Positions 11,897-48,941 of a stretch of 64,000 bases of DNA are shown here, piece by piece. Position 1 is the stretch's first letter; each line of letters begins with the position of its first letter. The position numbers and the translations under genes are program-made. The notes beneath the pieces are model-generated. The model was given only the letters and a program-made list of their open reading frames with translations, was not told the origin of the DNA and did no database searches. Source of the stretch: Patescibacteria group bacterium (GTDB taxonomy: Bacteria; Patescibacteriota; Microgenomatia; UBA8517); the NCBI GenBank assembly GCA_022868165.1, contig JALHYA010000004.1, positions 83,432-147,431 of the forward strand, in the 5' to 3' direction.

Positions 11897-11920
11897 AGCG
11901 CGAAGGCGCTGTTATTCATT
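11897..11920 (+). promoter_or_regulatory. Leader hairpin AGCGC-GAAG-GCGCT followed by a U-rich tract, ending 5 nt before the hrcA start
   Basis: Seen in sequence: stem 11897-11901 / 11906-11910, then GTTATTCATT. No Shine-Dalgarno sequence before ATG 11925. Confidence 0.35.
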
Positions 11921-11924
11921 AAAC

Positions 11925-12653
11925 ATGACTGACGGGCTAACCGCTAGACAAACACAAATTCTTAAGGCTTTAATCGATGAGTATATCGAAACCGCCGAGC
12001 CTGTCGGGTCCGAGAATTTGGACAAGAAATTTAATCTTGGAGTTTCCCCGGCAACAATACGAAACGAGATGGTAGATTTAACAAAAATGGGATATCTAAG
12101 ACAACCCCATACCTCGGCAGGAAGAATTCCCTCGCCCCGCGCAATAAAGTTTTATGTCGATACTCTTATGGAAGAAAAACAAATGAGTCTTGCCGATGAA
12201 GTAAAAGCAAAAGAGGAAGTTTGGGATTCCAGGGACGATATTGACGAACTTATTGCGGAGGCGACAAAAGCGCTTGCCGAAAGAACAAGTGAGCTTGCGG
12301 TCGCAGCGACCGATGAAGGTAAGGTTTGGCACGCCGGCTATTCGAACGTTTTTTTAAATCCTGAATTTGCAGATATCGAAATGTGCTCCAATTTATTTTC
12401 GTTTTTGGAAGAAGCCCAAGGAATTCATGATCTTTTCTTTGCCCACAAGTTTACCTCTCCAATCGAGGTTCTTTTTGGGGAAGAACTGGGTTGGCGTGAA
12501 CTTGCGCCTATTGGGATAGTTGCCACGCATTTTAATGCGAAAGGACGAAATGGGGCCTTGGGGATAATCGGTCCGACAAGATTAAGTTACCCGACAATTA
12601 TTCCCGTTTTGCGATATTTTGGTAATTTAATAGAAGAGGTTGCCGGAAAATGA
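11925..12653 (+). CDS. hrcA: Heat-inducible transcription repressor HrcA (short form)
   Basis: MTDGLTARQTQILKALIDEYIETAEPVGSENL...VSPATIRNEMVDLTKMGYLRQPHTSAGRIP is the HrcA winged-helix N-terminus. Lies upstream of grpE-dnaK. Confidence 0.8.
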   Translation: MTDGLTARQTQILKALIDEYIETAEPVGSENLDKKFNLGVSPATIRNEMVDLTKMGYLRQPHTSAGRIPSPRAIKFYVDTLMEEKQMSLADEVKAKEEVWDSRDDIDELIAEATKALAERTSELAVAATDEGKVWHAGYSNVFLNPEFADIEMCSNLFSFLEEAQGIHDLFFAHKFTSPIEVLFGEELGWRELAPIGIVATHFNAKGRNGALGIIGPTRLSYPTIIPVLRYFGNLIEEVAGK

Positions 12654-13072
12654 GTAAAATAAAAGAGTTAGATTTACTCAAGGAACAACTTGCAAGGGCA
12701 TTGGCGGATTATGATAATTTAAGAAAGAGGGCTGAAACCGAAAAACTTTCTTGGGCAAAGTTTGCAAGTCAGGGGATTTTGATAAAATTATTACCGGTTT
12801 TGGATATTTTGGAGTCGGCCAATTCGCACCTTGGGGATAAGGGACTTGAGATTGCACTTGCGGAATTTAAGAAAATCTTGGGAGAAGAGGGTCTTATTGA
12901 AGTCAATCCAAAAAGTGGACAGGTCTTTGACCATTCCGACCAAGAGGCAATAGAGTCGCTAGATGGGGGCAAGAAAGGAACGGTTGCGGAGGTTGTGCTT
13001 CCGGGATGGAAGTTTGTGGACGGACCGGTTGTGAGAGTTGCTAAAGTTAAAGTGTTTGGAAAGGGAAAATAA
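12650..13072 (+). CDS. grpE: Nucleotide exchange factor GrpE (short)
   Basis: ...[19 protein letters not shown]...[11 protein letters not shown]...[26 protein letters not shown]. 4-nt overlap with hrcA. Confidence 0.85.
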
Positions 13073-13077
13073 TTAAT

Positions 13078-15039
13078 ATGTCAAAAATCGTCGGAATTGA
13101 TTTAGGAACAACAAACAGCGTTGTGGCCGTAATGGAAGGGGGACATCCAAAAGTTATCCCCGCAGCCGATACCGGCAGAAATATTACGCCTTCCGTTGTC
13201 GAGCCCGTCAAAAACCTGGTCGGCGATGTGGCCAAAAGACAGGTAATCCTAAATCCCAAAAACACAATCTATTCGGTTAAGCGTCTTATGGGTAGGCGCG
13301 CCGACGATAAAGAGGTTGCAAGAACCAAAGAAATGGTTCCTTACGAAATTAAAGCCGGCAAAGACGGAATGGCGGTTGTCGAAGTTGAAGGCAAAACCTA
13401 CACCCCGCAGGAAATTTCGGCAAGAATCTTAATGAAGCTCAAAAAAGACGCGGAAAGCTATCTCGGCGAGAGTGTTGATAGTGCCGTAATTACGGTTCCC
13501 GCTTATTTTGATGATTCCCAGCGTCAGGCAACAAAGCAGGCTGGAGAAATCGCGGGGCTTAAAGTCGAAAGAATCATAAACGAACCAACAGCATCGGCCT
13601 TGGCCTACGGACTCGAAAAGGCTGCTCCGCAGAAAGAAAAACTTGAAAAAATCGCCGTTTACGACCTTGGGGGAGGAACTTTCGATATTTCTATCCTGGA
13701 GTTGGGGGATGGGGTTTTCGAAGTTAAAGCTACAAACGGAGATACACACCTAGGAGGAGACGATTTTGACGAAAAAATAGTTGACTGGATAGCGTCGGAG
13801 TTCAAAAAAGAATATGCGGTGGACCTTAAGGCCGACAAACAGGCGCTCCAGAGGGTCCGCGACGCAGCCGAGAAAGCAAAGATTGAACTTTCTGCGGCCA
13901 ACGAGATTGAAATAAACCAGCCCTACATTACCCAAAAAGACAGTCAGCCTCTTCATTTAACAATGAAGTTGACTAGGGCAAAATTGGAAAGCATTGTTTC
14001 CGATTTAATAGAAAAAACAATGAAGCCGGTTGAGTCGTGTTTTAAGGATGCAAAACTTGACCCGCACGATATTGATGAGGTAATTCTTGTAGGTGGAATG
14101 ACAAGAATGCCGAAAGTTGTAGAGACTGTTAAAGAATATTTTGGTAAAACTCCGAATCAATCGGTAAATCCGGACGAAGTAGTTGCCGTCGGAGCCGCTA
14201 TACAGGCCGGAGTTTTGGGTGGAGAAGTAAAAGACATTCTTCTGTTGGATGTGACTCCCCTGACTTTGGCAATAGAAACAATGGGGCAAATTGCAACCCC
14301 AATGATTCCTAGAAATACGACTATCCCGACTTCAAAGACCGAAATATTTTCAACCGCGTCGGATAATCAGACTCAGGTGGAGATAAATATAACCCAAGGG
14401 GAGCGTCCAATGAGCGTGGATAATAAGAGTCTTGGAAGATTTATCCTTGACGGTATTCCTCCGTCTCCCCGCGGGGTTCCGCAGATTGAAGTGACATTCG
14501 ATATTGATGCCTCGGGGATTTTGAAAGTTACGGCCAAGGATAATGCAACCGGAAAAACTCAAAACATCACAATTTCAGGTGCAATCGGACTTTCGGATGA
14601 CGAAGTCAAAAGAATGCAGGATGAGGCGGAAAAGCACAAGGAAGAAGACAAAAAGAAAGCAGAACAGGTTGAGGGCAAGAATCGTGCCGATGCGATGATT
14701 GCAGCTTCCGAGAAGGCTCTTAAGGACGCCGGAGATAAAGCTCCAAAAGAAGTAAAGGAGAAAGTGGAAGAGAAGATTAAAGCCTTAAAGGATATTCTGG
14801 AGACCGGCAGCAAGGAAGATTTGGAAGCAAAAACCAAAGATTTGTCGGACACTCTAAGTCAGGTTGGACAGGCAATGTATCAAGGCAAGCAAGGCGAAGA
14901 GAAGAAAGCCGAAGGTGCCGAGCAAAGTCGAGGAAACAAAGGCCCTGAGGACGTTCGACAAGGCTCAGTCGATAACCCCGCCGAAGGGGAAGACAAGAAA
15001 AAAGAAGAGAAGGTGGAGGAAGGCGAAGTTGTAAACTAA
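13078..15039 (+). CDS. dnaK: Chaperone DnaK (Hsp70)
   Basis: [15 protein letters not shown]...[12 protein letters not shown]...[13 protein letters not shown] plus C-terminal lid and EEVN-like tail. Confidence 0.95.
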
Positions 15040-15048
15040 GAATGTTAA

Positions 15049-15927
15049 ATGGCTGCAAAATCCGATTACTACGACATCCTCGGGGTTACTAAAAACGCTT
15101 CAGCCGAAGAATTAAAAAAGGCATACAGAAAGCAGGCTCTTGAGTGGCATCCCGATAGACACAAAGACGAGAAAGAAGTTGCAGAAAAACGCTTCAAAGA
15201 AATAAACGAGGCCTATCAGGTTTTGTCGGACTCGCAAAAACGTTCGGCCTATGACCAGTTTGGCCATCAAGCATTTACACCGGGAGGCGGATTTGCGGGC
15301 GCTAATCCGTTTGCTCAGAGTGGAAGGGCAGGCCCTTTTACCTATACTTACACAACTTATGGCGGTGGCCAAGACTCCCCCTTTGCCGGATTTGATTTTG
15401 GCGACCCGTTTGAAATTTTTGAACAGTTTTTTGGGGGAGGTAACCCATTTAGACAGCAGCAAAGAAGTGTTCCGCGCTATTCGATAAAAATTGATTTTAT
15501 TGAGGCTATGAAAGGGACAACAAAAGAAGTGGTTATCGAAAGGGAAAAACGGACGATAAAAATACCTGCAGGTGTGGATGAAGGTTCAAGGATTAATTTT
15601 GGAGATTTCCAGCTCTCGATTAATATAAAACCAAGCAATACATTTGACAGAGACGGAGACGATATTTATGCAACACTCAAGGTTCCCTACTCAATGCTGG
15701 TTTTGGGCGGAGAAACCCAAGCTCCGACCATCGATGGAGATATAAAAATAAGAATTCGTCCAGGAACACAGCCGGGAACGATGCTTAGAATTAGGGAAAA
15801 AGGAGTCCCCAGGCTTCACGGTCGTGGTCGTGGAGATGAGTATATTCGCATTAATATTTTGGTTCCCGATAAGCCAACGAGGGAACAAAAGCATCTTATA
15901 GAGGAGATGGGGAAAAGGGGTTTATAA
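15049..15927 (+). CDS. dnaJ: DnaJ-family co-chaperone lacking the Cys-rich zinc-finger domain
   Basis: J-domain DYYDILGV...HPDR, G/F-rich region, C-terminal substrate-binding domain ([15 protein letters not shown]...). No CxxCxGxG repeats and no Cys at all. Confidence 0.8.
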
Positions 15928-15936
15928 TATTTCGAG

Positions 15937-16674
15937 ATGACTGAAACAGGCGACATAGGTGAAAGAAAGGTTCCTTGTACCATTTCTCCCGAGTGGAATA
16001 AGACTATTCTTGCGCAGCAGAGGATTAAAGAGAGGGGTTTCTATGAGGAAGCCGATCGGGAATCCCCAAAGGGTTACTATTTAGGTAGACCGATAATAGG
16101 AAGAGACACTGCAATTAATGGAGGGGTGTATCTTGGCGGCGGCGAGAGAGAGGCAATTGTTGTTGACGATTCCTTGCCCAAAAGTCCGTTAAATAATGTG
16201 TACAGCGAATTACTGGCAATGAGGGCGAGGGCTGTTCAAAGAGGAGAACATTTCAAAGAAACCCTGCTGAGCGATGTTTTTGATCTCGTGCGACATAGAC
16301 TACCTTATAACGAACGGAGAGTGCGGGAAATTGGAGCCGCAATAGGCATAAAACCTGACCAGAAAGTGTCTTTGGGGGTATACATAACTGAAAAAACTGG
16401 GGTTTGCAGGCACCAGGCCCTTCTGGTTGCTTATCTTTTAGAAAGGCTTCGTAACGAGGGCCGGGTTAAAGGTAAAGTTTCGGTCGATAGGAATTATATT
16501 CCAGGAATAGGCGGGCACGCTTGGGTTAGATATATAAATTCTGCTGGAGAGGTAATAATAATAGATCCTGCGCGTGAACTAATTGATGATCTGCAACACA
16601 TAAAACCAGAACTAAGGGTGTTTTATGAAAGACCGCAAGAGCAGGGTTTTATACGCAAGCTCCTAAAGAAATAG
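15937..16674 (+). CDS. Cytoplasmic transglutaminase-like (TGc) Cys-His-Asp superfamily protein
   Basis: Core ...EKTGVCRHQALLVAYLLERLRNEG...GGHAWVRYINSAGEVIIIDPA matches the TGc signature (G-C-x-x-h-A; GHAW; hh-DP). No signal peptide. Starts 9 nt after the dnaJ stop. Confidence 0.5.
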   Translation: MTETGDIGERKVPCTISPEWNKTILAQQRIKERGFYEEADRESPKGYYLGRPIIGRDTAINGGVYLGGGEREAIVVDDSLPKSPLNNVYSELLAMRARAVQRGEHFKETLLSDVFDLVRHRLPYNERRVREIGAAIGIKPDQKVSLGVYITEKTGVCRHQALLVAYLLERLRNEGRVKGKVSVDRNYIPGIGGHAWVRYINSAGEVIIIDPARELIDDLQHIKPELRVFYERPQEQGFIRKLLKK

Positions 16675-16681
16675 TTTTAGA

Positions 16682-16710
16682 TTGACTTGTTTCTGCTTCT
16701 GGGGTAAACT
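16682..16710 (+). promoter_or_regulatory. Candidate sigma-70 promoter for nusA-infB (TTGACT-N17-TAAACT)
   Basis: -35 at 16682-16687, -10 at 16705-16710. Followed by leader hairpin GGTGGG-ATTTTTG-CCCGCC + ATTTTTTG (16734-16760) ending 10 nt before ATG 16771. Confidence 0.4.
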
Positions 16711-16770
16711 TGAGCAGGTTTTGTGAGTTTGATGGTGGGATTTTTGCCCGCCATTTTTTGTAAAAGACAT

Positions 16771-17913
16771 ATGCAAACACCGAGAACAGAATTTGCTCAA
16801 GCACTAACAGCCATCGCAACAGAGCGAGGGTTGGATGTCTCCGTGATTTTGGATACCATCAAGCAGGCAATTATTGCGGCTTACAGGAGAGATGCCCGTG
16901 AGCGCGGTGAAGATACGGAAACATCTGATTTTGACGCAGAAATTGACCCCGTAAACGGCGAAACCAAGATTTTCTCCTGGCCTTTGGAAAAGCCTGAAGA
17001 AAGAAAAGACGTTACTCCTCCGGGATTTGGCCGAATTGCAGCACAAACCGCAAAGCAGGTAATTCATCAGAAGATTCGTGAGGCTGAAAAAGGTGCGATT
17101 ATGGAGGAATTTGGAGAAAGAGTCGGAACCTTAATTTCCGGTATGGTTCTTCGCTTCGATGGTCCCAATGCACGCGTGGATATTGGCCGAACGGAGGCTA
17201 TTTTGCCGGCAGAGGAAAGGATACCCAACGAGCGATTGAATCTTAACCAGCGTATGACTTTTCTATTGAAAGATATAAAAGAAGGCTTAAAGGGTAAAGA
17301 AATTGTTCTTTCCAGGGGAGACCCAACTTTTGTCGAAAAGCTCTTTGCCAGGGAAGTTCCGGAAGTTGCCTCGAAGAGCGTAATTGTCAAGGCAATTGCC
17401 AGAGAACCCGGAATAAGAACCAAGATTGCTGTTGCCTCCGCGCAATCCGGCGTTGACCCCGTAGGAAGTTGTGTGGGCCAAAAAGGAGTAAGAGTTCAAG
17501 CCGTAACCAATGAGCTTGGGGGAGAGAGAGTTGATATTATTCCTTGGAGCGAGGATTCGGCTGAGCTTATCAAAGCTTCTCTTTCTCCGGCCGAAAACAT
17601 GGTGGTCGAGTTGGACGAAAAGAACAAAGTAGCCAAGGTTAAAGCTCCCGAAGATCAGCTTTCTTTGGCAATAGGCAAGGAGGGACAAAATGCAAGGCTT
17701 TGTGCGAAGCTAACCGGCTACAGGATTGAAGTCGAAGGACTCCCTGTTGAGTTTGCGAAGGAAGAGAAACCTGTTGAGGAAGAGGAAAAACCCAAAAAAG
17801 AGAAAAAGGTCAAAAAGGCTAAAAAATCAAAGCAGGCTAAGGCTAAAGAGTCTCAAGAAGTGGAAGAAGAGAAAACTGAAGATGGAAGTAAGAAGCTCGA
17901 TGCTGGAAAATGA
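16771..17913 (+). CDS. nusA: Transcription termination/antitermination factor NusA with Lys/Glu-rich C-terminal tail
   Basis: N-domain, S1 and two KH domains (...GVDPVGSCVGQKGVRVQAVTNELGGERVDII...). The ORF-track start 16723 was trimmed to the Met preceding FAQALTAIATERGL because the promoter and leader hairpin lie inside the longer ORF. Confidence 0.85.
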   Translation: MQTPRTEFAQALTAIATERGLDVSVILDTIKQAIIAAYRRDARERGEDTETSDFDAEIDPVNGETKIFSWPLEKPEERKDVTPPGFGRIAAQTAKQVIHQKIREAEKGAIMEEFGERVGTLISGMVLRFDGPNARVDIGRTEAILPAEERIPNERLNLNQRMTFLLKDIKEGLKGKEIVLSRGDPTFVEKLFAREVPEVASKSVIVKAIAREPGIRTKIAVASAQSGVDPVGSCVGQKGVRVQAVTNELGGERVDIIPWSEDSAELIKASLSPAENMVVELDEKNKVAKVKAPEDQLSLAIGKEGQNARLCAKLTGYRIEVEGLPVEFAKEEKPVEEEEKPKKEKKVKKAKKSKQAKAKESQEVEEEKTEDGSKKLDAGK

Positions 17914-17954
17914 AATTAGAAGTGAGAATGTGTAATTTCAAACATCGAACTTCA

Positions 17955-17980
17955 TAGTCTAATCTCTAGCTTCCAACCTC
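17955..17980. repeat. Copy of a dispersed ~20-nt intergenic motif (TCTAATCTCTAGCTTCCAAC) in the nusA-infB spacer
   Basis: 19/20 identical to 5447-5466 (TCTAATCTCTAACTTCCAAC). Its reverse complement (TTGGAAGYTAGAGATTAGA) is also found in the rpsO-pnp spacer. Confidence 0.5.
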
Positions 17981-17989
17981 TACCTTCGA

Positions 17990-19420
17990 TTGGTAAATAT
18001 GAAGACTATTATATCTAAAATGCAAACAACACAGACAAGGCCGCCTATTGTTACAGTACTAGGACACGTAGACCACGGTAAAACAACACTGCTTGATGCT
18101 ATTCGAAAGAGCAATGTAGCTTCGAAGGAAGCCGGCGGAATTACACAAAGTATAGGAGCTTCCACTGTTACCACAAAAGAGGGAAAGACAATAACATTTA
18201 TAGATACTCCCGGGCATGCGGCTTTTTCTAAAATGCGCTCAAGAGGTGCAAAAGTGGCTGATTTGGCGCTTCTGGTTGTTGCAGCAGATGATGGGGTAAA
18301 GCCCCAAACAATCGAGGCACTTCAATTGATTAAAGCGGCTAATATACCATTTATAGTAGTAGCTTCCAAGGTGGATTTACCCTCGGCTTCAGTTGAAACA
18401 CTCTATGGGCAGCTTGAGAAGGAACAAGTGTTGTTTGAAAATCGGGGAGGAGCTACTCCTTTGGTTCAGGTATCGGCAAAGAACGGAACAGGAATTGAAG
18501 AAATTCTTGAGATGATTAGCCTTGTGGCCGACCTCGAAGAAATTAAGGCGGATCCTAAAGCGATTCTCGAGGCTGTTGTAATCGAAACCACCAAAAACAC
18601 AAGGGGTCTTTTGACATCGGCGGTTGTTAGAAACGGGACTTTAAAAGTCGGACAAGAAGTGTATTGCGAGGGACTAAGGGCAAAAGTGCGAGGACTTTTT
18701 GATGACAAGGGCCAGAGTGTAAAAGAAATTATCTGCGGGTTTCCCGCTCAAATACTTGGATTTGAAAAATTACCTTCAGTCGGAGCCGTAATTAGCGGTT
18801 CGGAAGCTAGTATGGCACTTCAGGTTGAGGGCAAGAAAGAACTTCAGATTAAGGTAGAAGAAGGCCAGCTTCCGGTTATAGTTAAAGCCAAAAACGCCGG
18901 AAGTTTGGAAGCTATCATTGCGGGATTACCAAAAGATGTTGTGGTTCTTGATTCGGGGGTTGGAGACGTATTTGAATCCGATGTGCTTTTGGCAAGATCC
19001 TCCGGGGCAAAATATATTTTAGCTTTCGAGTCCAAGGCACCTACATCGGTCATGAAGCTGGCCGAAGCCGAAGGGGTAAAAATAGAAGCTTTTCAAATAA
19101 TCTACGAGCTTTTCCAAAAGGTTGAAGAAATTCTTAAGGGCGGGCAAATCGAGATATTGGGTAAGGCCGAAATTGTTGCTTCTTTTCCTTTCAACAACAA
19201 AAAAGTAGCAGGATGTAGGGTTACTCTAGGCAGAATTAATAAAACGGATACTTTAATTGTTCAGCGGGGAGAGAAAGAGTTGGGCAGAGTAAAAATTGTA
19301 TCCCTTAAGAAACAAAAACAAGACATTGCGGAGGCAAAGATAGGCGAGGAATTTGGAGTGATTTTTGCACCGCAACTTGATTTTGCTGAAGGCGATGTGA
19401 TAGTATCGGTGCGAAAGTAA
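17990..19420 (+). CDS. infB: Translation initiation factor IF-2 (short form lacking N-terminal domains)
   Basis: G-domain right at the N-terminus ([19 protein letters not shown]...DTPGHAAF...SKVDL), domain II beta-barrel, and the C-terminal fMet-tRNA-binding domain. 476 aa. Confidence 0.9.
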   Translation: MVNMKTIISKMQTTQTRPPIVTVLGHVDHGKTTLLDAIRKSNVASKEAGGITQSIGASTVTTKEGKTITFIDTPGHAAFSKMRSRGAKVADLALLVVAADDGVKPQTIEALQLIKAANIPFIVVASKVDLPSASVETLYGQLEKEQVLFENRGGATPLVQVSAKNGTGIEEILEMISLVADLEEIKADPKAILEAVVIETTKNTRGLLTSAVVRNGTLKVGQEVYCEGLRAKVRGLFDDKGQSVKEIICGFPAQILGFEKLPSVGAVISGSEASMALQVEGKKELQIKVEEGQLPVIVKAKNAGSLEAIIAGLPKDVVVLDSGVGDVFESDVLLARSSGAKYILAFESKAPTSVMKLAEAEGVKIEAFQIIYELFQKVEEILKGGQIEILGKAEIVASFPFNNKKVAGCRVTLGRINKTDTLIVQRGEKELGRVKIVSLKKQKQDIAEAKIGEEFGVIFAPQLDFAEGDVIVSVRK

Positions 19421-19424
19421 AACA

Positions 19425-20270: not shown

Positions 20271-20358
20271 TATTGTTTTGTCAATATTTGTGTGTTATTA
20301 TACCCAAGATGTAGACAAGGTTTTTCGATGAAACGAATTACTTTGTTTAACACGACTT

Positions 20359-20628: not shown

Positions 20629-20635
20629 GGAGAGG

Positions 20636-20680
20636 GGAAGTTAGAATTTAGAAGCTAGAAAAGAAATTGGAAGTTAGAAA
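20636..20680. repeat. Two tandem copies of the dispersed intergenic motif (GGAAGTTAGA-ATTTAGAAGCTAGA ... TTGGAAGTTAGA) in the rpsO-pnp spacer
   Basis: GGGAAGTTAGAATTTAGAAGCTAGAA is 21/23 identical to the reverse complement of 5441-5463 (GGAAGTTAGAGATTAGAAGCTGG). Confidence 0.5.
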
Positions 20681-20713
20681 GATCTCAAATCAAACTTCAA
20701 AATCTAGCTTCTA
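20649..20713 (+). promoter_or_regulatory. Long-range hairpin in the rpsO-pnp intergenic leader (11-bp perfect stem TAGAAGCTAGA / TCTAGCTTCTA, 43-nt loop)
   Basis: Seen in sequence. This is the same position as the RNase III-processed pnp leader hairpin known from E. coli. The right arm is an inverted partial copy of the dispersed motif. Confidence 0.45.
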
Positions 20714-20742
20714 GCATCAAACATCTCACTTCAAAGAATCTA

Positions 20743-22989: not shown

Positions 22990-23019
22990 CCAGGCCGTGC
23001 TAATCTGATATAGATATTT

Positions 23020-24066: not shown

Positions 24067-24068
24067 AG

Positions 24069-26353: not shown

Positions 26354-26384
26354 TATTGTGCTTCTTGTATAATGTAGTTAAGCC

Positions 26385-28475
26385 ATGGCCAAAAAACACA
26401 GACGCGGTGGAAGAAGGTCATTTAACCTCAAATTAAAAAAGGGGACCGTATATTCGATTGCCCAAGTTGTATTTTTTGCTCTTGCGGGTTTAATTTTTAT
26501 TTCTTTTGCCAGGCGGGGAGCGGCACTTGTTTTTATAAATAACTTTCTGGTTGCAAATTTCTCCTGGACTGTAGTATTTTTGCCTTTTATTTTTCTTGCA
26601 TTTGCTCTTCTGGTTTCCAAAATAAGAACTCCTTTAAGCCAGCCGAATGTGATTGTCGGAGGCTTGTTATTTTTTATTTCCCTTGTAAGTATCTCAAGGG
26701 CGGGGACTGTGGGAAGAGCGGCTTGGGACGGCGTTTCATCTTTGGTTACCGGAGTCGGAGCGTTTATTATTCTTCTCGGACTTTGCATGGTAGGGCTTAT
26801 TGTTCTTTTTAATACCTCAATAGACCAAGTCGTTACTTTTATTCTTTCCTTGTTTAACCAGTCGAGGCGCTACGTTACGGGTGCTCAAACCGGAGGCGGA
26901 GCTTTTACGAGAGGGGGGTTAAAAGTATCCGGCGGCCAGCCTTTTTCCAAAGAACCGGCGAAAAGTTCTCAAAGGGTTAACGAGGAGCCTTTGGCGCCCA
27001 AATTGGTGAGTAATGTTCCAGGAGAAGAACGGGTTTGGAAATATCCGCCGATTAGCCTTCTTAGCGATACCGAAACCGGCAAGGCCGACAGGGGTGACAT
27101 CAAAGGCAACGCCGCAACTATTGAGAAAACCCTTGAATCTTTCGGTATAACGGCGCGGGTTGTTGAAGTTAATATGGGTCCGGCGGTTACGCAATATGCT
27201 CTTGAAGTTGCGCTTGGCACAAAACTATCCAAAATTACCTCACTCGAAAGGGACCTTGCTCTGGCTCTTGCGGCACCCACCGGAACTATAAGAATTGAGG
27301 CCCCAATCCCCGGAAGGAATTTGGTGGGTATTGAGCTTCCAAACCGTTCTCCCGAATTTGTGCCTCTGAGGAAAATGCTCGAATCAAACGAAATGCGCGA
27401 GAGCCATTCAAAATTGGAGGTTTCTTTGGGATTGGATGTTTCTGGGAAGCCAGTTGTTTCGGATATCGGCAGAATGCCCCATGTCTTGATTGCGGGGCAG
27501 ACCGGTTCGGGAAAAAGCGTTTGTATAAATTCTTTCCTGGGCTCTATTCTTTTTAGGGCAACACCTTCGGAAGTTAAATTAATTCTGGTTGACCCTAAGA
27601 GAGTTGAACTTACCGGCTATAACGGTGTTCCCCATCTTCTTTCTCCGGTAATTGTGGAGCCCGAAAAGGTCATTTCGGCCCTAAGATGGATTCTTTCGGA
27701 GATGGACAGGAGATATAAGCTTTTTCAGCAGGCCGGCGTCAGAAATATTGACGCATATAATGAAATGTCAGGTTTCCAGGCTCTTCCATACATAGTTTTA
27801 ATTATCGACGAATTGGCGGATATTATGCTTTTTTCTCCAGTTGAAGTTGAAGACAATGTTACCAGAATTGCACAAATGAGCCGAGCAACCGGAATTCATA
27901 TGGTTTTAGCCACCCAAAGACCCTCGGTCGATGTTATTACGGGACTTATCAAGGCAAATATTCCTTGCAGAATTGCATTTGCCGTCGCTTCACAAGTTGA
28001 TTCCAGAGTTATTCTTGATACTCAGGGAGCCGAGAAACTTCTGGGTCGCGGAGATATGTTGTATCTTCCCCCGGAACAGGCAAAACCGCTCAGACTTCAG
28101 GGCGCATTTGTCTCGGATAGGGAAATAAATCAGCTTGTGGAATTTTTGAAGAATCAGGGAGTTACTCCGCAATATACGGAAGAAGTAATAAAGATGACGA
28201 AATCCGGAGTTCCTCAAGTTCCGGGACTGGATGGGGACATGGATGATTTGTTCCAGGAGGCAGTCAAGACAGTTTGTCAGTATGAAAGAGCTTCGGCCTC
28301 CCTTCTTCAAAGAAGGCTTTCTATTGGCTATGCCAGGGCAGCGCGAATTTTGGACCAGCTGGAAGCCACAGGGGTTGTTGGGCCCGCGGAGGGAAGTAAA
28401 CCAAGAGAAGTTTTGATTCAAAACGCAGATGAATTTTTAAATAGGTCTGCCCCACCCGAGTCTCCGCAGTCATAA
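26385..28475 (+). CDS. ftsK: DNA translocase FtsK/SpoIIIE
   Basis: N-terminal 4-5 TM, linker, motor domain HVLIAGQTGSGKSVCINSFL...LILVDPKRVEL...IVLIIDELADIM, C-terminal gamma winged helix (ASLLQRRLSIGYARAARILDQLE). Confidence 0.9.
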   Translation: MAKKHRRGGRRSFNLKLKKGTVYSIAQVVFFALAGLIFISFARRGAALVFINNFLVANFSWTVVFLPFIFLAFALLVSKIRTPLSQPNVIVGGLLFFISLVSISRAGTVGRAAWDGVSSLVTGVGAFIILLGLCMVGLIVLFNTSIDQVVTFILSLFNQSRRYVTGAQTGGGAFTRGGLKVSGGQPFSKEPAKSSQRVNEEPLAPKLVSNVPGEERVWKYPPISLLSDTETGKADRGDIKGNAATIEKTLESFGITARVVEVNMGPAVTQYALEVALGTKLSKITSLERDLALALAAPTGTIRIEAPIPGRNLVGIELPNRSPEFVPLRKMLESNEMRESHSKLEVSLGLDVSGKPVVSDIGRMPHVLIAGQTGSGKSVCINSFLGSILFRATPSEVKLILVDPKRVELTGYNGVPHLLSPVIVEPEKVISALRWILSEMDRRYKLFQQAGVRNIDAYNEMSGFQALPYIVLIIDELADIMLFSPVEVEDNVTRIAQMSRATGIHMVLATQRPSVDVITGLIKANIPCRIAFAVASQVDSRVILDTQGAEKLLGRGDMLYLPPEQAKPLRLQGAFVSDREINQLVEFLKNQGVTPQYTEEVIKMTKSGVPQVPGLDGDMDDLFQEAVKTVCQYERASASLLQRRLSIGYARAARILDQLEATGVVGPAEGSKPREVLIQNADEFLNRSAPPESPQS

Positions 28476-28481
28476 TTTTTA

Positions 28482-34439: not shown

Positions 34440-34632
34440 GAACGTAATTGCACCGATTCAGGCTTGGCTTCTTTCCCAAAAACGCTGCGTTGGTTGCGGA
34501 AAAGAGCTCGCCGATGCCAAAAGAGGTAAGGCAAAGGGAGGCGAAGAAAAAGTCACTTGTTTCTGCGGCCGTATTTATATTCACGACACAAAAACCGACA
34601 AATACAGGCGCGCTCTCTTGGAAGAAGTTTAA
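34432..34632 (+). CDS. Small Cys4 zinc-ribbon protein, hypothetical
   Basis: 66 aa. CVGC...(19)...CFC. 8-nt overlap with the ruvX end. Confidence 0.35.
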   Translation: MFKNVIAPIQAWLLSQKRCVGCGKELADAKRGKAKGGEEKVTCFCGRIYIHDTKTDKYRRALLEEV

Positions 34633-34706
34633 CCTCAATAACATCCTCCGCAGGCTAAAGCGTGCGGTTTCCTTTGAAGGAGGATGATATATCAGGTTCA
34701 ATTCCT

Positions 34707-34728
34707 CCACGAATTAAAAAATTCGTGG
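34707..34728. promoter_or_regulatory. Perfect 9-bp inverted repeat CCACGAATT-AAAA-AATTCGTGG 17 nt upstream of mltG
   Basis: Seen in sequence. Preceded by a GC-rich imperfect hairpin (CATCCTCC ... GGAGGATG, 34642-34686). Candidate operator or attenuator. Confidence 0.35.
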
Positions 34729-34744
34729 TATCCTTGAAACTGTT

Positions 34745-35734
34745 ATGAAGCGCACAATTCTTGTTTTATTTGTACTGGCCATAGCTGTTTTGGGAATCTT
34801 TTGGTGGAGGGAAAATACAAAGTCGGTTTCGGCCGATAAGGCGTTGAAAAGTATTGTTATACCCAGAGGTTCAAGTGCGGGTGCAATAGGCACGCGTCTT
34901 GCCCAGGCGGGGTTGATTAAAAACTCTTTGATTTTCAGAATTTATACAAGGATTACCGGAACGGCCGGAAAAATCCAGGCGGGAGAATATCTTCTTTCGC
35001 CAAGTTTCCCGTTAACAAAAATTGTTGAATATCTAACAAATGGGCCTGTCGAAGTCTGGGTTACGGTACCCGAAGGAATGCGAAGAGAAGAAATTGCCGA
35101 TAAATTTATATCGGGGCTCGGCAAGAACGGGGAGGATGCGACGGTCTTTAGAGACGAATTCTTAAATCGCTCAAGCGGACTTGAAGGTTTTCTTTTCCCC
35201 GATACATACCTATTTCCCAAGGACGCAAGTGCATCCGCAGTCGTTGCCAAATTAAGATCGACATTTGATTTACGGGTGGATTCAAAAATGAAAGAGGATA
35301 TTTCCAAGTCCGCATACGATTTGGGTCAGATTATTAGTTTGGCCGCCATTATCGAAAGGGAAACGATCACGTCTGGTGAGCGTCCGGTGGTCGCAGGCAT
35401 TTTATATAAAAGATTAAAAGCCGGATGGCCTCTCCAGGTGGATGCGACAATCCAATATGCACTCAGTAGCCAAAAATGCTCGGTCGGTACGGGATGCAAT
35501 TGGTGGCCGAATGTATCAATAGACGATAGAGCCATAAATTCTAGATACAACACATACAAATTTGCCGGCTTGTCGCCAACACCCATTGCCAGTCCCGGTC
35601 TTTCGTCAATTAAGGCGGCAATTTACCCGGAAGATTCGCCATATTGGTACTATCTTCATGATTCAAAAGGAGTAATTCATTATGCACGGACGTTGGAAGA
35701 ACATAACCAGAATATCAATAAATACATAATGTAA
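34745..35734 (+). CDS. mltG: Endolytic murein transglycosylase MltG (YceG-like)
   Basis: N-terminal TM, then VTVPEGMRREEIA...FLFPDTYLF...AAIIERET...GWPLQVDATIQYAL...NTYKFAGLSPTPIASPG. Confidence 0.85.
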   Translation: MKRTILVLFVLAIAVLGIFWWRENTKSVSADKALKSIVIPRGSSAGAIGTRLAQAGLIKNSLIFRIYTRITGTAGKIQAGEYLLSPSFPLTKIVEYLTNGPVEVWVTVPEGMRREEIADKFISGLGKNGEDATVFRDEFLNRSSGLEGFLFPDTYLFPKDASASAVVAKLRSTFDLRVDSKMKEDISKSAYDLGQIISLAAIIERETITSGERPVVAGILYKRLKAGWPLQVDATIQYALSSQKCSVGTGCNWWPNVSIDDRAINSRYNTYKFAGLSPTPIASPGLSSIKAAIYPEDSPYWYYLHDSKGVIHYARTLEEHNQNINKYIM

Positions 35735-35754
35735 GGATATGAGAAAGTTTCCCC

Positions 35755-35782
35755 TTGACACGAGCGTGCTGTTTTGTATAAT
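35755..35782 (+). promoter_or_regulatory. Strong consensus sigma-70 promoter for the rpoB-rpoC operon (TTGACA-N16-TATAAT with upstream TG)
   Basis: TTGACA 35755-35760; TGTATAAT 35775-35782. Confidence 0.5.
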
Positions 35783-35811
35783 CCACCCTAGGCGTACGTA
35801 AGTACGTTGTT

Positions 35812-35842
35812 CCCGCTTCATTCTGCGGGGGTTTTGTGTTTG
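35812..35842 (+). promoter_or_regulatory. Leader hairpin CCCGC-TTCATTCT-GCGGG followed by GGUUUUGUGUUUG, ending 4 nt before the rpoB ATG
   Basis: Seen in sequence. Attenuator-like structure. No Shine-Dalgarno sequence before ATG 35847. Confidence 0.4.
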
Positions 35843-35846
35843 TAAA

Positions 35847-39224: not shown

Positions 39225-39226
39225 AA

Positions 39227-43422: not shown

Positions 43423-43426
43423 TATT

Positions 43427-43906: not shown

Positions 43907-43925
43907 TTTCCAGTTAAAATAAATT

Positions 43926-46088
43926 ATGGCAGAGCAAGCAAGGAAAAAAGCAGCTATGATTGTGACGGTTACCAAAGACCGCGATGTTCCATTGGAAAGA
44001 ATAAGAAATATCGGAATTATCGCCCATATCGACGCCGGCAAAACCACGACAACCGAGCGGATTCTTTTTGAGACAGGCAAGACATATAGGATAGGCTCGG
44101 TTGACGAAGGAACAACGGTTACAGACTGGATGGCGCAGGAGCGCGAGCGCGGAATTACTATCGTTTCCGCAGCCATCACTACCTTCTGGGACCTGAAAAA
44201 CAAATCTTCTGTCGAGCCAGGCCATTATCGAATAAATATCATTGACACTCCGGGACATATCGACTTTACCGCAGAGGTTGAGAGGAGCTTGAGAGTTTTG
44301 GACGGGGCGGTAATGGTTTTTGACGGTTGTACGGGAGTTGAATCCCAGTCCGAAACCGTTTGGCACCAGGCAGATAAATATAATGTTCCAAGAATTTGTG
44401 TTCTTAACAAGCTAAATCTTATTGGGGCGGATTTTGAGGGAAGCATCAAATCCATCCACGAGCGCCTTGGGGCAAATGCTAGCCCAGTGAATATTCCTAT
44501 TGGGGTTGAACATGCCCATAGAGGAGTAGTTGACCTTATCAAAATGAAAGCCTTTACTTATAAAGACATTTCCGACAATAAGCTTACCGAGGAAGAAATT
44601 CCGGCTGACTTGGTCGAAGAAGCTAAAAAATACAGGCACGAGCTTATAGAAAAAGTTGCTGAGTACGACGATGTCGCTCTTACAAAATATCTCGAAGGCC
44701 AAGAGCCAACAGAGGAAGAATTGAAAAGGGCAATAAGGGCCGGGGTTGTGGCCGGCAGGTTTTTCCCAATTTTTGGCGGGGACAACAGGACCGTGGAGGT
44801 TCAGATTCTTTTGGACGGCGTTGTGGAATATCTTCCTTCTCCTTTGGACTTGCCTGCAGTTATCGGAACTAATCCCAAAACAGGCGAGAAAGAAACCAGA
44901 GAAAGGAAAAACGAGGTCCCCTTTAGCGCCTTGGCATTTAAGGTTATGACCGATCCTCACGTTGGCCGTTTAGTCTACTTAAGAATTTACTCCGGCAAAC
45001 TTTCAACGGGCCAGGTTATTTATAATTCAACCTCCCAGAAGCAGGAAAGAATAGGAAAGTTGGTTCTTTTGCATGCTGACCAGAGGGAGCTTATCGAAAA
45101 CGCATTCGCCGGAGAAATAGTGGCTGCAGTCGGAATCAAAGATACCACAACCGGAGATACTCTTTGCGACCCGTCCAGTCCGATTCTTCTTGAGTCAATT
45201 TCTTTCCCGGAGCCCGTTATTTCTTTGGCCATTGAGCCGGCAACAAAGAGCGACCAGGAAAAAATGGGCATGGCTTTAGGTAAACTTTCCGACGAGGACC
45301 CGACCTTTAGAATTAAATCCAACCCCGAAACTGGACAAACAATAATTTCCGGAATGGGAGAGTTGCAGCTTGAGGTTCTTGTGGACAGAATGAAGCGCGA
45401 ATTCGGAGTTGTTGCCACAACCGGAGCCCCACAGGTTGCCTATAAGGAAACGGTTAAAAAAATTGGTCAGGGAGAAGGGAAGTATATTCGCCAAACTGGA
45501 GGAAGAGGGCAATATGGGCATTGTTTACTTCGGGTTGAGCCTCGCGGGCGCGGTGAAGGATTCGAATTTAAGAGCGAAATAAAAGGTGCTGCAATTCCTT
45601 CCGAATTTATTCCTGCTATCGAAAAGGGAGTCAAAGAGAAGATGGAGAACGGAATTATGGCGGGTTTCCCAATGGTCGATATATTGGTGGCGGTTTATGA
45701 CGGGAGCTTCCACGAAGTCGACTCCAGCGAAATAGCCTTCAAAATCGCCGGTTCTTTGGCGGTTGAAGAAGCGGCCAGAGCCGCCGAAATGATACTTTTG
45801 GAGCCCATTATGAAACTGGAAGTTTCCACCCCGGAAGAGTTTATGGGAGATGTCATCGGAGATTTATCCTCTAAGCGCGCCCAGATTCAGGGAACGGAGA
45901 AAAAGGGAAAAATGACGGTTATTTTGGCCCAGGCACCATTGGCCGAGCTTTCCGGGTACGCCACAAAGCTGCGTTCGATTTCTCAAGGAAGAGCCAGCTA
46001 TTATATGGAGCCTTCTCACTACGAAGAAGTTCCCAAAAATATTGCCGAGCAAATAGTTGCCAAGAGCGGGAAGCAACCTGCCTCTTGA
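43926..46088 (+). CDS. fusA: Elongation factor G
   Basis: G-domain [22 protein letters not shown]...[10 protein letters not shown]. 720 aa. Confidence 0.95.
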
Positions 46089-46114
46089 CAGGCTTATTTA
46101 GCCTCGATTATAAT
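46085..46114 (+). promoter_or_regulatory. Candidate promoter for tuf (TTGACA-N18-TATAAT) overlapping the fusA stop codon
   Basis: TTGACA 46085-46090, TATAAT 46109-46114. Confidence 0.4.
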
Positions 46115-46123
46115 ACGAGTTAG

Positions 46124-46150
46124 TAAGGGCTTCTATGCCCTTATTTATTT
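46124..46150 (+). promoter_or_regulatory. Hairpin TAAGGGC-TTCTAT-GCCCTTA followed by UUUAUUU, 12 nt upstream of the tuf ATG
   Basis: Seen in sequence. A perfect 7-bp stem and a T-run; intrinsic-terminator-like element located in the tuf leader. Confidence 0.45.
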
Positions 46151-46162
46151 CGGAAACTTAAA

Positions 46163-47362
46163 ATGGCAGGTGAAGCAAAACAAAAATACGTTAGATCTAA
46201 GCCGCACGTAAACGTTGGAACCATCGGTCATGTTGACCATGGTAAAACCACTTTGACAGCGGCTATTACCTCTGTTTTATCCAAACAGCCCGGCAATCCT
46301 ACAAAAGCCCTTAAATTTGACGAAATTGATAATGCTCCAGAGGAAAAGGAAAGAGGAGTTACTATCAATATTTCCCACATAGAGTACGAAACAGACAAGC
46401 GCCACTATGCTCATATTGACGCTCCGGGACACGCCGATTACATAAAAAACATGATTACCGGTGCGGCACAGATGGACGGAGCAATATTGGTTATCTCCGC
46501 AGCCGATGGTCCAATGCCTCAAACCCGCGAGCATGTTATTTTGGCCAGACAAGTCAATGTTCCCGCAATCGTGGTTTTCTTAAACAAGGTTGATACGGTT
46601 GATGACCCCGAAATTATTGATTTGGTTGAAGCTGATGTTCGTGATCTTCTTAAGAAATACGAATATCCCGGAGATGAAGTTCCGATAATCAAAGGAAGTG
46701 CTCTTAAAGCCTTGGAGGGCGATGCTGAAGCCGAAAAGCAAATTTTGGAGCTTATGAAAGCAGTAGACGAATACATTCCGGAACCTAAACGCGATGTTGA
46801 TAAGCCCTTCCTGATGCCTATAGAGGATATTTTTGCAATCAAGGGTCGCGGAACGGTTGTTACCGGCCGCGTAGAACGCGGTAAATTAAAGGTTAACGAG
46901 GAAGTTGAAATCGTCGGACTTAGGGAAACCAAAAAAACGGTTGCAACCGGGCTTGAAATGTTCAGAAAAACTTTGGACGAAACTCAGGCAGGAGACAATG
47001 TAGGAGTTCTTTTGAGGGGAATTGAAAAAGACGATGTTGAGCGCGGACAGGTTTTGGCAAAGCCGGGCACAGTTACTCCTCATACGGAATTCGAAGCCGA
47101 AGTTTATATTCTTTCTAAAGAGGAAGGTGGAAGGCATACACCGTTCTTTACCGGATACAAACCGCAATTTTATGTAAGAACAGCCGATATTACCGGAGAA
47201 GTTAAGCTTCCGGAGGGAATTGAAATGGTTATGCCTGGAGACAACGCCAAAATGCACATCAAACTCATTCAGCCCGTATCTATGGAGGAAGGTTGGAGAT
47301 TTGCTATTCGTGAGGGCGGACAAACCGTTGGAGCCGGCGCCATCACAAAGATAGTTGCGTAA
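46163..47362 (+). CDS. tuf: Elongation factor Tu
   Basis: ...[21 protein letters not shown]...[25 protein letters not shown].... Confidence 0.97.
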
Positions 47363-47372
47363 AGCACATTAA

Positions 47373-47681
47373 ATGCCTACTGGTAGACTTCGCGTCAAGC
47401 TTAAAAGCTACGACCACCGCGTCATTGACGAAGCGGCTCTGAAGATATTGGATTCAGTTTTGGCTACCGGGGCAAAGATTATTGGTCCGACCCCTCTTCC
47501 TACCAAAAGAACTCTCATGGCTGTCAAAGAATCTCCTTTTACGGATAAAGATGCCCAGGAACATTACGAAATATTGGTCCACAAGCGCCTGATTGACATT
47601 CTGGACCCTTCCGAACGCACAATCGACGCCCTTAGCAATCTCGACCTCCCTGCGGGGGTGTCAATCGAGATAAAGATGTAA
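47373..47681 (+). CDS. rpsJ: 30S ribosomal protein S10
   Basis: ...RLRVKLKSYDHRVIDEAALKILDSVLATGAKIIGPTPLPTKR...HYEILVHKRLIDIL.... Confidence 0.9.
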   Translation: MPTGRLRVKLKSYDHRVIDEAALKILDSVLATGAKIIGPTPLPTKRTLMAVKESPFTDKDAQEHYEILVHKRLIDILDPSERTIDALSNLDLPAGVSIEIKM

Positions 47682-48804
47682 GTTTTGTTTTCGTAAGCAG
47701 GTAAACGTTTATTCCCCACAAAATTACGGCTCCATAAAATTGGTTAGACAAAAGCAATATTTTCGGAAAACCTAAATATAGAGAAGGATTTTTGAAATTC
47801 CAGCTAACCAGTAAATAGGCGACTCCTAGTAAAATCCACAACCAAATTTTCTTTATAGTCAAAGCGTATCTACAAAGAACGACGAACGGAAAGATTAGCC
47901 AGACAAAGTGATGTTGCCAGGAGAGTGAATCAACCAAAAGAAGAGAGATAAGGAAAAGTGAAAACAGTAGTTGTTTGTTATTTTTCTTAAAAGCCAAGAA
48001 GGAGCTTGACCCAACAACCAAGATAGAAATCAAAATTGTGGCGAGCCCTCGAATAGTAGGGTTCTGTGTAAGCCTAGAAATAAAACCAGAGATGCCTTGG
48101 TTATAATAAACTTCCCTGCCACCCATTCCCAAAAGGGGAGGAAAAACCTTTTCTATCCAGTACTGATAAAGTGCAATATTTGAGACTAAGATTGAAAGAA
48201 GAAAGCCTCCGATTAGGGTGCCAAGAATATACAAAATTACTCTCCGTTCGTGCTCCAGCAGGAAAAATAAAAGAAGAAATCCAAATATTGGTTTGGAGAT
48301 AATACTCAACCCTAATAGTATTCCGGCAATTTTGTAACTTCTTCTAAGATAAAAATAGAAACCCGAAAGAAGAATGAAAAGCGAAATTGTGTTTACCTGC
48401 CCCATGCCTAGAGTATATTTTGTTGGGAAGGCTGTGAGAGCCAAGAATAGAACAAGTAGAAAATAATGCCATGGAATTTTGTCGAAAGTGATTTTTAGAG
48501 AAATGAGGGCTGTTCCCACAATTGAAGCGAATGACAGTAAAATGAATATAGCCTGAGCGTATCGATAAAAAATTAGGGACAGAGGAATATAAAATACTAG
48601 TGTTATGGGAGGCTGGAGTAACTGATAGACAAGATCAGGGTTACTGTATAGATTTTTCCTGGCCAGGAAATCTTTTGAGGCCATCCAGAAAACAGAGAAG
48701 TCTGGAGCGGTTGTAGAAACTATTTTGAGAATTGACCAGCAAATCCAGGCAAAGCTGAACAAAAATAGAACTACAACTGCTAATTTCAGCAATCTCCTGC
48801 TCAT
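47632..48804 (-). CDS. Polytopic membrane protein, GT-C/DUF2029-like glycosyltransferase, inserted antisense between rpsJ and rplC
   Basis: 390 aa, about 11 TM. ...SYKIAGILLGLSIISKPIFGFLLLFFLLE... resembles the GT-C modules at 1432-4957. Its 3' end overlaps the rpsJ 3' end convergently by 50 nt. Confidence 0.55.
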   Translation of the reverse strand: MSRRLLKLAVVVLFLFSFAWICWSILKIVSTTAPDFSVFWMASKDFLARKNLYSNPDLVYQLLQPPITLVFYIPLSLIFYRYAQAIFILLSFASIVGTALISLKITFDKIPWHYFLLVLFLALTAFPTKYTLGMGQVNTISLFILLSGFYFYLRRSYKIAGILLGLSIISKPIFGFLLLFFLLEHERRVILYILGTLIGGFLLSILVSNIALYQYWIEKVFPPLLGMGGREVYYNQGISGFISRLTQNPTIRGLATILISILVVGSSSFLAFKKNNKQLLFSLFLISLLLVDSLSWQHHFVWLIFPFVVLCRYALTIKKIWLWILLGVAYLLVSWNFKNPSLYLGFPKILLLSNQFYGAVILWGINVYLLTKTKLTSLSRLTPPQGGRDC

Positions 48805-48824
48805 TTGGCGCTAGTATACCACCC

Positions 48825-48853
48825 TTGCAAGCTTGAGCCTGCTCTGATATAAT
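48825..48853 (+). promoter_or_regulatory. Promoter restarting the ribosomal protein cluster (TTGCAA-N17-TATAAT with extended -10 TG)
   Basis: TTGCAA 48825-48830; TGATATAAT 48845-48853. Confidence 0.5.
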
Positions 48854-48919
48854 TTCGCCATCGTGGAGGTGGTTTTCTCGAATTAACCACTGTTTAGAAT
48901 TGCGGGACGGCGTTTACAA

Positions 48920-48941
48920 GGTGCCTCCGGCACCTTTTTTT
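48920..48941 (+). promoter_or_regulatory. Hairpin GGTGCC-TCC-GGCACC followed by a U7 tract, 13 nt upstream of the rplC ATG
   Basis: Seen in sequence. A canonical intrinsic-terminator shape placed inside the S10-operon leader, i.e. attenuator-like. Confidence 0.45.

Follow-up and report, generated by a model that had tools for sequence, protein, structure and literature searches.

The stretch of DNA analysed here (the window) consists of 64 000 nt of contig JALHYA010000004.1 (positions 83 432 to 147 431, forward strand) from a Patescibacteria group bacterium, and it includes the heads of five gene clusters, beginning with hrcA, nusA, rpoB, tuf and rplC, in which a hairpin lies between a promoter and the start codon. 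The host is a Woesebacteria-like member of the Microgenomates, in the candidate phyla radiation (CPR; Patescibacteria). Candidatus Woesebacteria UBA5073 has an RpoC with 79 % identity to that of the host, and the RpoC matches ranking next are to other Woesebacteria and Microgenomates genomes. The G+C content of the window is ~44 %. Genes on the plus strand form two almost unbroken co-directional arrays, 10134–47681 and 48955 to the window end, and the products confirmed using Pfam are MurJ, HrcA, NusA, IF-2, YceG, RuvX, L3 and a divergently oriented GT87 glycosyltransferase. The gene orders murJ-hrcA-grpE-dnaK-dnaJ-...-nusA-infB-...-rpsO-pnp and rpoB-rpoC-rpsL-rpsG-fusA-tuf-rpsJ-...-rplC are strongly kept in relatives.

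An initial annotation of the window had described the same layout at all five heads, namely a sigma-70-like promoter, a short G+C hairpin followed by a U-rich run, and an ATG without a Shine-Dalgarno (SD) sequence. All five sequences were found in place, and the hairpins were confirmed by folding (z-scores between -2.2 and -3.9 in the four short leaders). The description holds for nusA, rpoB, tuf and rplC, where promoter, G+C hairpin, T-run and SD-less ATG are all present, but not for hrcA. The stems at these four sites are 8–9 bp long, including G-U and A-U pairs, with 4–5 G-C pairs (the rpoB core is 5–6 bp), and correspond to the compact G+C stem-loop of an intrinsic terminator, whereas the hrcA stem is only 5 bp. 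The U-run 3' of the stem is clear at nusA and rplC and interrupted at rpoB and tuf, and hrcA does not have one of the terminator type. All five ATGs are 14–18 nt past the stem and lack an SD. Strong terminator-like hairpins (≥6 bp, ≥4 G-C pairs and ≥5 T in 8) number 12 on the plus strand of the window. The five head regions cover 0.77 % of the window and contain four of the 12 (binomial p ~1.6e-6). In the first 60 kb of the window, promoters matching TTGACA/TATAAT at 12/12 positions are found only at the rpoB and tuf sites. Total counts in the consensus promoter and terminator scans equalled those in shuffled sequence, and only top-ranked sites were relied on.

For comparison, 155 loci from relatives were recovered by searching genomes with RpoC and metagenomes with NusA (one scan each), and 10 more were added via L3 homologues; these loci are labelled L001–L165. 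Distinct upstream regions with a terminator-like hairpin no more than 100 nt from the start were counted. Among Microgenomates relatives, such a hairpin was found upstream of nusA in 48/58 cases, rpoB in 18/27, rplC in 9/13 and tuf in 7/16. At hrcA, the count was 2 of 18 relatives, with none in the strong class, and for 16 other, neighbouring genes the values were 0–27 % (0–11 % for the strong class). This comparison of operon heads with other genes had been suggested in the initial annotation and, when run across the family, it is the four leaders that stand out. The leader layout is selected and gene-specific.

The promoter precedes the hairpin in every nusA, rpoB, tuf and rplC leader examined, and the leader promoters are kept in relatives although the flanking sequences diverge. 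The distance from the -10 box to the hairpin is 7–38 nt at nusA, ~26–33 nt at rpoB (with a 5' hairpin between), 7–10 nt at tuf and ~30–75 nt at rplC. Scanning the Microgenomates loci de novo identified 128 distinct non-coding hairpins, and a strong promoter was present within 100 nt upstream of 33 of them and downstream of 5; the shuffled control gave 3. Nearly all of the 33 are at the heads of nusA, rpoB, rplC, tuf or infB. Hairpins outside these heads have a strong promoter just upstream in only 3 of 51 cases, and a genome-wide promoter-then-terminator rule was rejected on this basis. The layout was not seen at the hrcA, rpsO, pnp, yceG, murJ or rpsL heads, and the infB head in the window also differs. 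The hairpin is kept where the upstream neighbour in the relative was called on the opposite strand (nusA, 8/8; rpoB, 2/3; tuf, 2/2; rplC, 3/3). As the hairpin is retained beside divergent neighbours and the promoter is always upstream of it, we conclude that it is an element of the downstream gene, acting on RNA that starts at that gene's own promoter. Where there is read-through from upstream, the hairpin probably insulates against this as well.

At nusA, the start supported by homology is ATG 16771 and not GTG 16723. A promoter scan placed TTGACT-N17-TAAACT at 16682–16710 on the plus strand (-35, 16682–16687; -10, 16705–16710), and TTGACT(TC)-N17-TAAA(A/C)T is kept in ~25 Woesebacteria-like relatives. 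The leader terminator found by scanning and folding at 16731–16760 (plus strand; hairpin, 16731–16755) has the stem GAUGGUGGG/CCCGCCAUU, a 7-nt loop and a U-run. In an alignment of 50 sequences, 85.9 % of the stem cells are paired and the covariation score is 0.268 vs 0.125 when shuffled (0 of 500 shuffles as high), while slid registers of the alignment all score far below the true register. One of the stem pairs, for example, is UG in 21 sequences, UA in 14, GC in 7 and CG in 5, and the frequency of G-U pairs in the stem places the structure in the sense-strand RNA. Positions +2 to +6 past the nusA stem were 84–100 % T when T content played no part in choosing the hairpins, compared to ~20–45 % elsewhere, which indicates that the T-run is integral to the element, like the U-tract of an intrinsic terminator. 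The nusA gene has its own promoter 7–38 nt before the hairpin in ~50 leaders, and the element therefore has the location of a leader terminator of the Bacillus subtilis type. The terminator is unbroken in the minimum-energy fold of 42 of 46 nascent leaders, and the RNA before it, which is unstructured, C-poor and has a median length of 18 nt, contributes ~-0.3 kcal/mol. There is no antiterminator in the nusA leader, because the terminator is unbroken in these folds and the ~18 nt upstream of it leave no room for one. The distance from the stem to the ATG ranges from 9 to >100 nt in relatives, and in distant relatives (L109, L112–L116 and L132–L135) the terminator is kept and is followed by a clear GGAG SD.

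The rpoB promoter, TTGACA-N16-TATAAT (35755–35782, plus strand), was found by the promoter scan and matches at 12/12 positions; identical hexamers and spacing are present in nine heads, namely the window, L001–L005, L007, L009 and L027. Two hairpins follow. Hairpin P1, GGCGUAC-GUAA-GUACGUU, identified by folding and comparison at 35791–35808 (plus strand), begins only a few nt from the predicted transcription start; L001–L004 keep the stem sequence, L005 has a swapped stem, and the loop varies. The second, detected by scanning and folding, is the terminator-like hairpin UCCCGC...GCGGGG with a U-rich run at 35810–35842 (plus strand; hairpin, 35810–35831), upstream of ATG 35847. In Levybacteria-like and other relatives, the rpoB hairpins and U-runs have unrelated stem sequences.

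Upstream of rplC, the promoter scan identified TTGCAA-N17-TATAAT (48825–48853, plus strand), with TG before the -10 box, and TATAAT is at the matching position in most of the Woesebacteria-like relatives examined. The gene upstream of rplC in the window is the divergent GT87 gene. Folding revealed an upstream hairpin, P1 (GGUGGUU...AACCAC, 48868–48891, plus strand), and the terminator AAGGUGCC-UCC-GGCACCUU followed by U7, also found in the scan, is at 48918–48943 (plus strand; hairpin, 48918–48936; ATG 48955). The GUGG...CCAC core of P1 is kept in L002, L003, L156, L159 and L161–L165, and L001 has GGAGGUG...CCAC without the GUGGUU arm. The terminator hairpin and T-run are also present in L156–L163. 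Reading of the Woesebacteria rplC leaders by eye, on which these statements on structure are based, shows that they also share a UAGUCUUCGAAGGAUGC motif, a GCGCC/GGCGC terminator, a UUGUUUAAUG motif, a third hairpin and an A/C-rich UCCAAAACCAAAAUG start region. Alignment of 11 rplC leaders using MAFFT and RNAalifold gave a poor consensus of only 4 pairs. Two further candidates were rejected, an antiterminator pairing of GGAGGU at 48866 with GCCUCC at 48922, for which relatives keep only the GUGG...CCAC hairpin, and a small upstream open reading frame (ORF) between terminator and rplC in relatives, whose frame is not kept, e.g. in L156.

A perfect SD-like GGAGGUG is found at 48866–48872, at the 5' end of the rplC leader, ~85 nt before the AUG and overlapping the 5' arm of P1. 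The motif is also present in L001 and L015, and as GGAGGUA in L028 and L029, in a lineage that seldom uses SD sequences. The rpsJ gene is co-transcribed with tuf, apart from rplC, and the divergent GT87 gene lies between them, overlapping the 3' end of rpsJ by 50 nt (window 47373–48954). The same GT87 insertion recurs in L159–L161 and L163, at times with an epimerase gene.

At tuf, the promoter P1, TTGACA-N18-TATAAT (46085–46114, plus strand), found by the promoter scan, is again a 12/12 match; ten heads (those of the window and nine relatives) have 12/12 hexamers, and a motif in the spacer, TTAGCCTCG, is likewise kept. Folding placed the 5'-terminal hairpin AGUAAGGGC...GCCCUUAUU and an interrupted U-run at 46122–46151 (plus strand; hairpin, 46122–46145), before ATG 46163. 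This hairpin begins 7–10 nt past the -10 box in 10 lineages, and the stems covary.

The hrcA head extends over 11861–11910 (plus strand) and consists of the promoter TTGACA (11861–11866)-N17-TAATTT (11884–11889), a CIRCE (controlling inverted repeat of chaperone expression) element at 11871–11897 and a hairpin at 11897–11910, with ATG at 11925. The CIRCE inverted repeat, TTAGCACTC-N9-GAGTGCTAA, was found with 2 mismatches where 0.01 chance matches are expected; the window copy, TTAGCACTC-N9-TACTGCTAA, overlaps the -10 box of the hrcA promoter. The gene downstream encodes a short HrcA (242 aa) carrying HrcA domains. The hairpin AGCGC-GAAG-GCGCT has 5 bp and the tail GTTATTCATT, and falls outside the definition of a strong terminator. 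In relatives no such hairpin is seen upstream of hrcA and CIRCE abuts the ATG, which is 7–11 nt past the -10 box, and the hrcA mRNA of the relatives would be leaderless or nearly so. Judged by this comparison, the window hairpin is a lineage-specific insertion beside CIRCE, outside the class formed by the other four. At the same spot, L085, L086 and L088 have inserts of 70–90 nt with long inverted repeats.

No match to Rfam was found for the whole window at the gathering score, and E-value searches with the nusA, rpoB and rplC heads returned only noise, mostly the terminator ends of small RNA families. A covariance model, R1, was built from the nusA hairpin; run on the window and 33 loci, it recovered only the nusA head in the window, plus 2 weak hits to rplC-head terminators in relatives. 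As R1 misses the other heads in the window, the four leaders are not copies of one sequence family. On these comparisons, they are separate elements with a common terminator shape.

The absence of an SD at the five heads was examined for the whole window. Duplex energies were calculated against ACCUCCUUU, with a ΔG of -6 or lower taken as SD-like. An SD-like site precedes ~31 % of the 62 window genes vs 17 % of random positions, and the pattern in relatives matches that of the window. The suggestion that only first cistrons are without an SD was not borne out, as ~70 % of the window genes lack one, including the internal genes dnaJ, rpsG, fusA, rpsJ, rplB, secY, adk and map. Finding no SD at five of five heads is unremarkable, since the probability by chance is ~0.69^5, or ~0.16. 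An SD-independent initiation mode specific to first cistrons, the second possibility raised in the initial annotation, is not supported, in view of both the low SD use throughout the lineage, internal genes included, and the distant nusA leaders that add a GGAG SD. Nor is the hairpin with its U-run a substitute ribosome-binding site, given the SDs that follow the terminator in those leaders and the variable distance from stem to ATG. Low SD use is a genome-wide trait that is unrelated to the hairpins.

In some relatives there is no leader at hrcA or at tuf, and the ATG is 7–11 nt (hrcA) or 13–16 nt (tuf) past the -10 box. In the window, perfect or near-perfect -10 hexamers end 8–11 nt before the start of three further genes, at 15929–15936 (orf245), 26374–26384 (the gene at 26385) and 48805–48818 on the minus strand (GT87). 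The promoter positions suggest that leaderless or near-leaderless mRNAs are common in the host, in line with the low use of SD sequences. The tempting misreading of the heads is corrected by these data; the lack of an SD, accompanied by leaderless or near-leaderless starts in relatives, is a property of the lineage and not of the hairpin.

The explanation that we favour, and hold to be reasonably probable, is that core-machinery operons of this Woesebacteria-like host carry gene-specific, conserved, promoter-proximal leader attenuators. RNA polymerase would start at a strong sigma-70-type promoter and transcribe ~15–100 nt before reaching the G+C hairpin and U-run, where the transcript would be either released or extended into the gene, and the fraction reading through would set expression of the operon (transcription attenuation). 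With no room for an antiterminator fold, the decision at nusA would most likely be made by trans-acting factors working on a marginal terminator. The likely factor there is NusA acting on its own leader, by analogy with B. subtilis. At rpoB, the performance or abundance of RNA polymerase would be the likely input, by analogy with Escherichia coli tL7 and Pseudomonas aeruginosa P26, and at rplC it may be a ribosomal protein bound to the kept upstream hairpin, by analogy with control of the L4/S10 type. The hairpin would in addition block read-through from any co-directional upstream gene, and this could account for the compact order of stop codon, promoter, terminator and start. The terminator class is firm for nusA, rpoB and rplC and less firm for tuf, the least secure of the four sites. 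Systematic attenuation of core operons, as put forward in the initial annotation, therefore stands for nusA, rpoB and rplC, and variably for tuf, but not as a general rule for operon heads. In an extended form, the four leaders would make up one minimal homeostatic regulon, with a single general factor (NusA or the elongation properties of the polymerase) acting on marginal terminators that lack antiterminators. If true, such a regulon (nusA-infB, rpoBC, tuf-rpsJ and S10-spc) would couple the whole expression machinery by one feedback loop, but we regard this extension as rather unlikely.

Several points weigh against attenuation at these sites. We infer termination in vivo, its partial nature and the factor controlling each site from the sequence alone. 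Transcription starts in all of the leaders are predicted, using only the positions of the -10 boxes, and the minus-strand upstream neighbours in the orientation comparison are ORF calls of at least 100 aa, verified in the window only. Terminator strengths were estimated as d'Aubenton-Carafa-type d-scores, and the values, ~-34 for hrcA, ~-2 for tuf, ~+5 for both nusA and rpoB and ~+37 for rplC, the strongest of the five, are approximate; the marginal scores at nusA, rpoB and tuf fit partial, factor-tunable termination. At rplC, the hairpin is retained in L164 and L165 and the U-run is degenerate, which hints at a protein-binding or translational component in this leader. The 5'-terminal geometry of the hairpins at rpoB (P1), tuf and hrcA would also suit an mRNA stabiliser. 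Most of the difficulties concern tuf, where the hairpin is missing in the Woesebacteria relatives L157, L159, L161 and L162 (the ATG is 13–16 nt past TATAAT) and, judging from these relatives, is dispensable. In addition, a second perfect TATAAT follows the hairpin in all nine relatives that have it (L001, L002, L003, L005, L010, L156 and L163–L165), 8–18 nt before the ATG (43 nt in L003), and in seven of these nine the corresponding -35-like sequence, TTGTTT or TTGTTA (TTGTGT in L002), is formed by the 3' end of the tuf stem and the T-run. The position of this second promoter implies a leaderless tuf mRNA, or one with a very short leader, in the relatives, and the hairpin there may simply end transcripts from P1 or from fusA; an RNA of ~30 nt, from P1 to the terminator, is possibly made. 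The tuf head in the window has no second promoter and the weakest U-run, and its hairpin may be mainly a weak attenuator or a 5' stem-loop.

An alternative is that the hairpins are the terminators of co-directional upstream units (murJ, the dnaK operon, yceG and fusA), with a nested promoter squeezed in whose transcripts largely ignore the terminator. The arrangement in the window is what would be expected for this, as at four of the five sites the upstream gene runs in the same direction and stops 0–80 nt short of the promoter, and the TGA stop codons of murJ and fusA are inside the -35 TTGACA hexamers (11861–11866 and 46085–46090), an extreme degree of intergenic compaction. Moreover, no strong punctuation was found in the ~37-kb array apart from the leader hairpins and one at 34648–34667, which follows a small ORF upstream of yceG. 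However, the hairpin is kept beside a divergent gene, both at rplC in the window and in all but one of the relatives counted above, and conservation of the hairpin follows the downstream gene while the upstream gene varies. The order of promoter then terminator is also invariant in >50 nusA leaders, although the reverse order would avoid self-attenuation. The terminator of the upstream gene as the sole explanation, which had been named in the initial annotation as a finding that would overturn its proposal, was rejected by this orientation comparison, and we consider the alternative as a whole improbable.

We are similarly doubtful that the hairpins are 5' stabilisers protecting the mRNA from 5'-end-dependent RNases such as RNase J, with the U-run as an unstructured S1 or standby landing pad replacing the SD, which corresponds to the second possibility raised in the initial annotation. 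RNase J is retained in CPR genomes (PMC12641178), which counts in favour, as do the tuf, rpoB P1 and hrcA hairpins starting 7–10 nt past the -10 box, at the predicted 5' end, and the five window ATGs 14–18 nt past the stem with no SD. Against this, the nusA and rplC hairpins are ~13–30 nt and ~57 nt, respectively, from the predicted start and hence not 5'-terminal, and the T-run is limited to 6–9 nt beside the stem, which is the signature of a terminator. The range of distances from stem to ATG, the GGAG SDs in distant relatives and the equal lack of SDs in internal genes also argue against a landing pad. Finally, loose promoter and terminator scans give equal counts in the window and in shuffles, and the hrcA hairpin is weak and not conserved, as would be the case for a chance resemblance among AT-rich intergenic regions with no common function. 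For four of the five sites, chance is contradicted by positional enrichment, conservation and covariation over dozens of relatives, making it extremely improbable. Leader attenuation is the reading retained below.

Further structured regions were noted in the window. The rpsO-pnp intergenic region (20629–20742) contains a long imperfect hairpin of ~100 nt (ΔG -29.8 kcal/mol, z-score -4.1) with no U-run, which we take to resemble the RNase III-processed pnp leader of E. coli. Low-complexity TTAGAA/TTGGAA motifs and their complement (TCTAATCTCTAGCTTCCAAC) recur in several operon heads, at 5421–5471, 17914–17998 and 20629–20742, and in the nusA leaders of L092 and L093, and may represent an intergenic repeat specific to the lineage. 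The 305-nt gap before yceG (34440–34744) is highly structured (z-score -5.8 for 34630–34747), with the terminator-like hairpin at 34648–34667 lying inside a CCUCC...GGAGG pairing and a 9-bp hairpin at 34707–34728; an apparent small Cys-rich (CxxC) ORF is upstream of these hairpins. The longest stem in the terminator scan of the window is an 11-bp near-perfect palindromic hairpin, TTTTGCTCCCTCCGGAAGGGGAGCAAAA, at 8724–8751, within a minus-strand ORF (8541–9194). Among the relatives, L112 (~4330–4445) and L115 (~3700–3820) each contain a promoter followed after ~50–60 nt by a strong terminator, with no ORF, and these short units could be small RNA genes.

Gene regulation in CPR bacteria is almost unstudied, as the hosts are uncultured and have few recognisable regulators, and the conserved terminators in the leaders of nusA, rpoBC and the main ribosomal-protein operon are concrete cis-elements that are absent from Rfam. 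Their presence suggests that the expression machinery is likewise held in check by classic feedback in reduced CPR genomes. The leader of the nusA operon in B. subtilis includes an attenuator that is described, in the summary of Mondal et al. 2016 given in PMC12288461, as a NusA-stimulated intrinsic terminator. The nusA leader reported here is like it in having an intrinsic terminator of marginal strength between promoter and first gene and no apparent antiterminator. It differs in that the host is a CPR Microgenomates bacterium and nusA comes first, no rimP/ylxS having been found upstream of it; the likeness is one of architecture, and dependence on NusA is putative.

Both P. aeruginosa and E. 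coli have an attenuator or partial terminator ahead of rpoB by which the amount of RNA polymerase is buffered (PMC4324240, PMC6181997). The leader in the window resembles tL7 and P26 in having a predicted partial intrinsic terminator immediately upstream of rpoBC, and homeostatic feedback by the polymerase is conceivable. However, tL7 and P26 are between rplL and rpoB in rplJL-rpoBC, whereas here rpoB is preceded by yceG, has its own consensus promoter and a kept 5'-terminal hairpin, and does not share that location. In the S10 leader of E. coli, L4 and NusA act at a terminator hairpin that needs an upstream hairpin (PMC3616713). The rplC leader similarly combines an upstream hairpin, P1 (GUGGUU...AACCAC), with a terminator, both kept in Woesebacteria relatives, and rplD (L4) is in the operon. 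Unlike the S10 leader, the element is upstream of rplC and not of rpsJ, which follows tuf, so that the location differs; there is no sequence or Rfam similarity, the U-run is degenerate in some relatives, and control by L4 is putative.

Stem-loops at the 5' end stabilise some mRNAs, e.g. those with the E. coli ompA and B. subtilis aprE leaders. The tuf, rpoB P1 and hrcA hairpins share with these a position at the predicted mRNA 5' end. Unlike the ompA and aprE stem-loops, the elements in the window have an adjacent U-run, and those at nusA and rplC are not 5'-terminal. A known type of feedback control on transcription is the most likely mechanism, rather than a new mode of translation start. 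As such it is unsurprising to a specialist, but the leaders themselves are new, conserved and testable regulatory elements.

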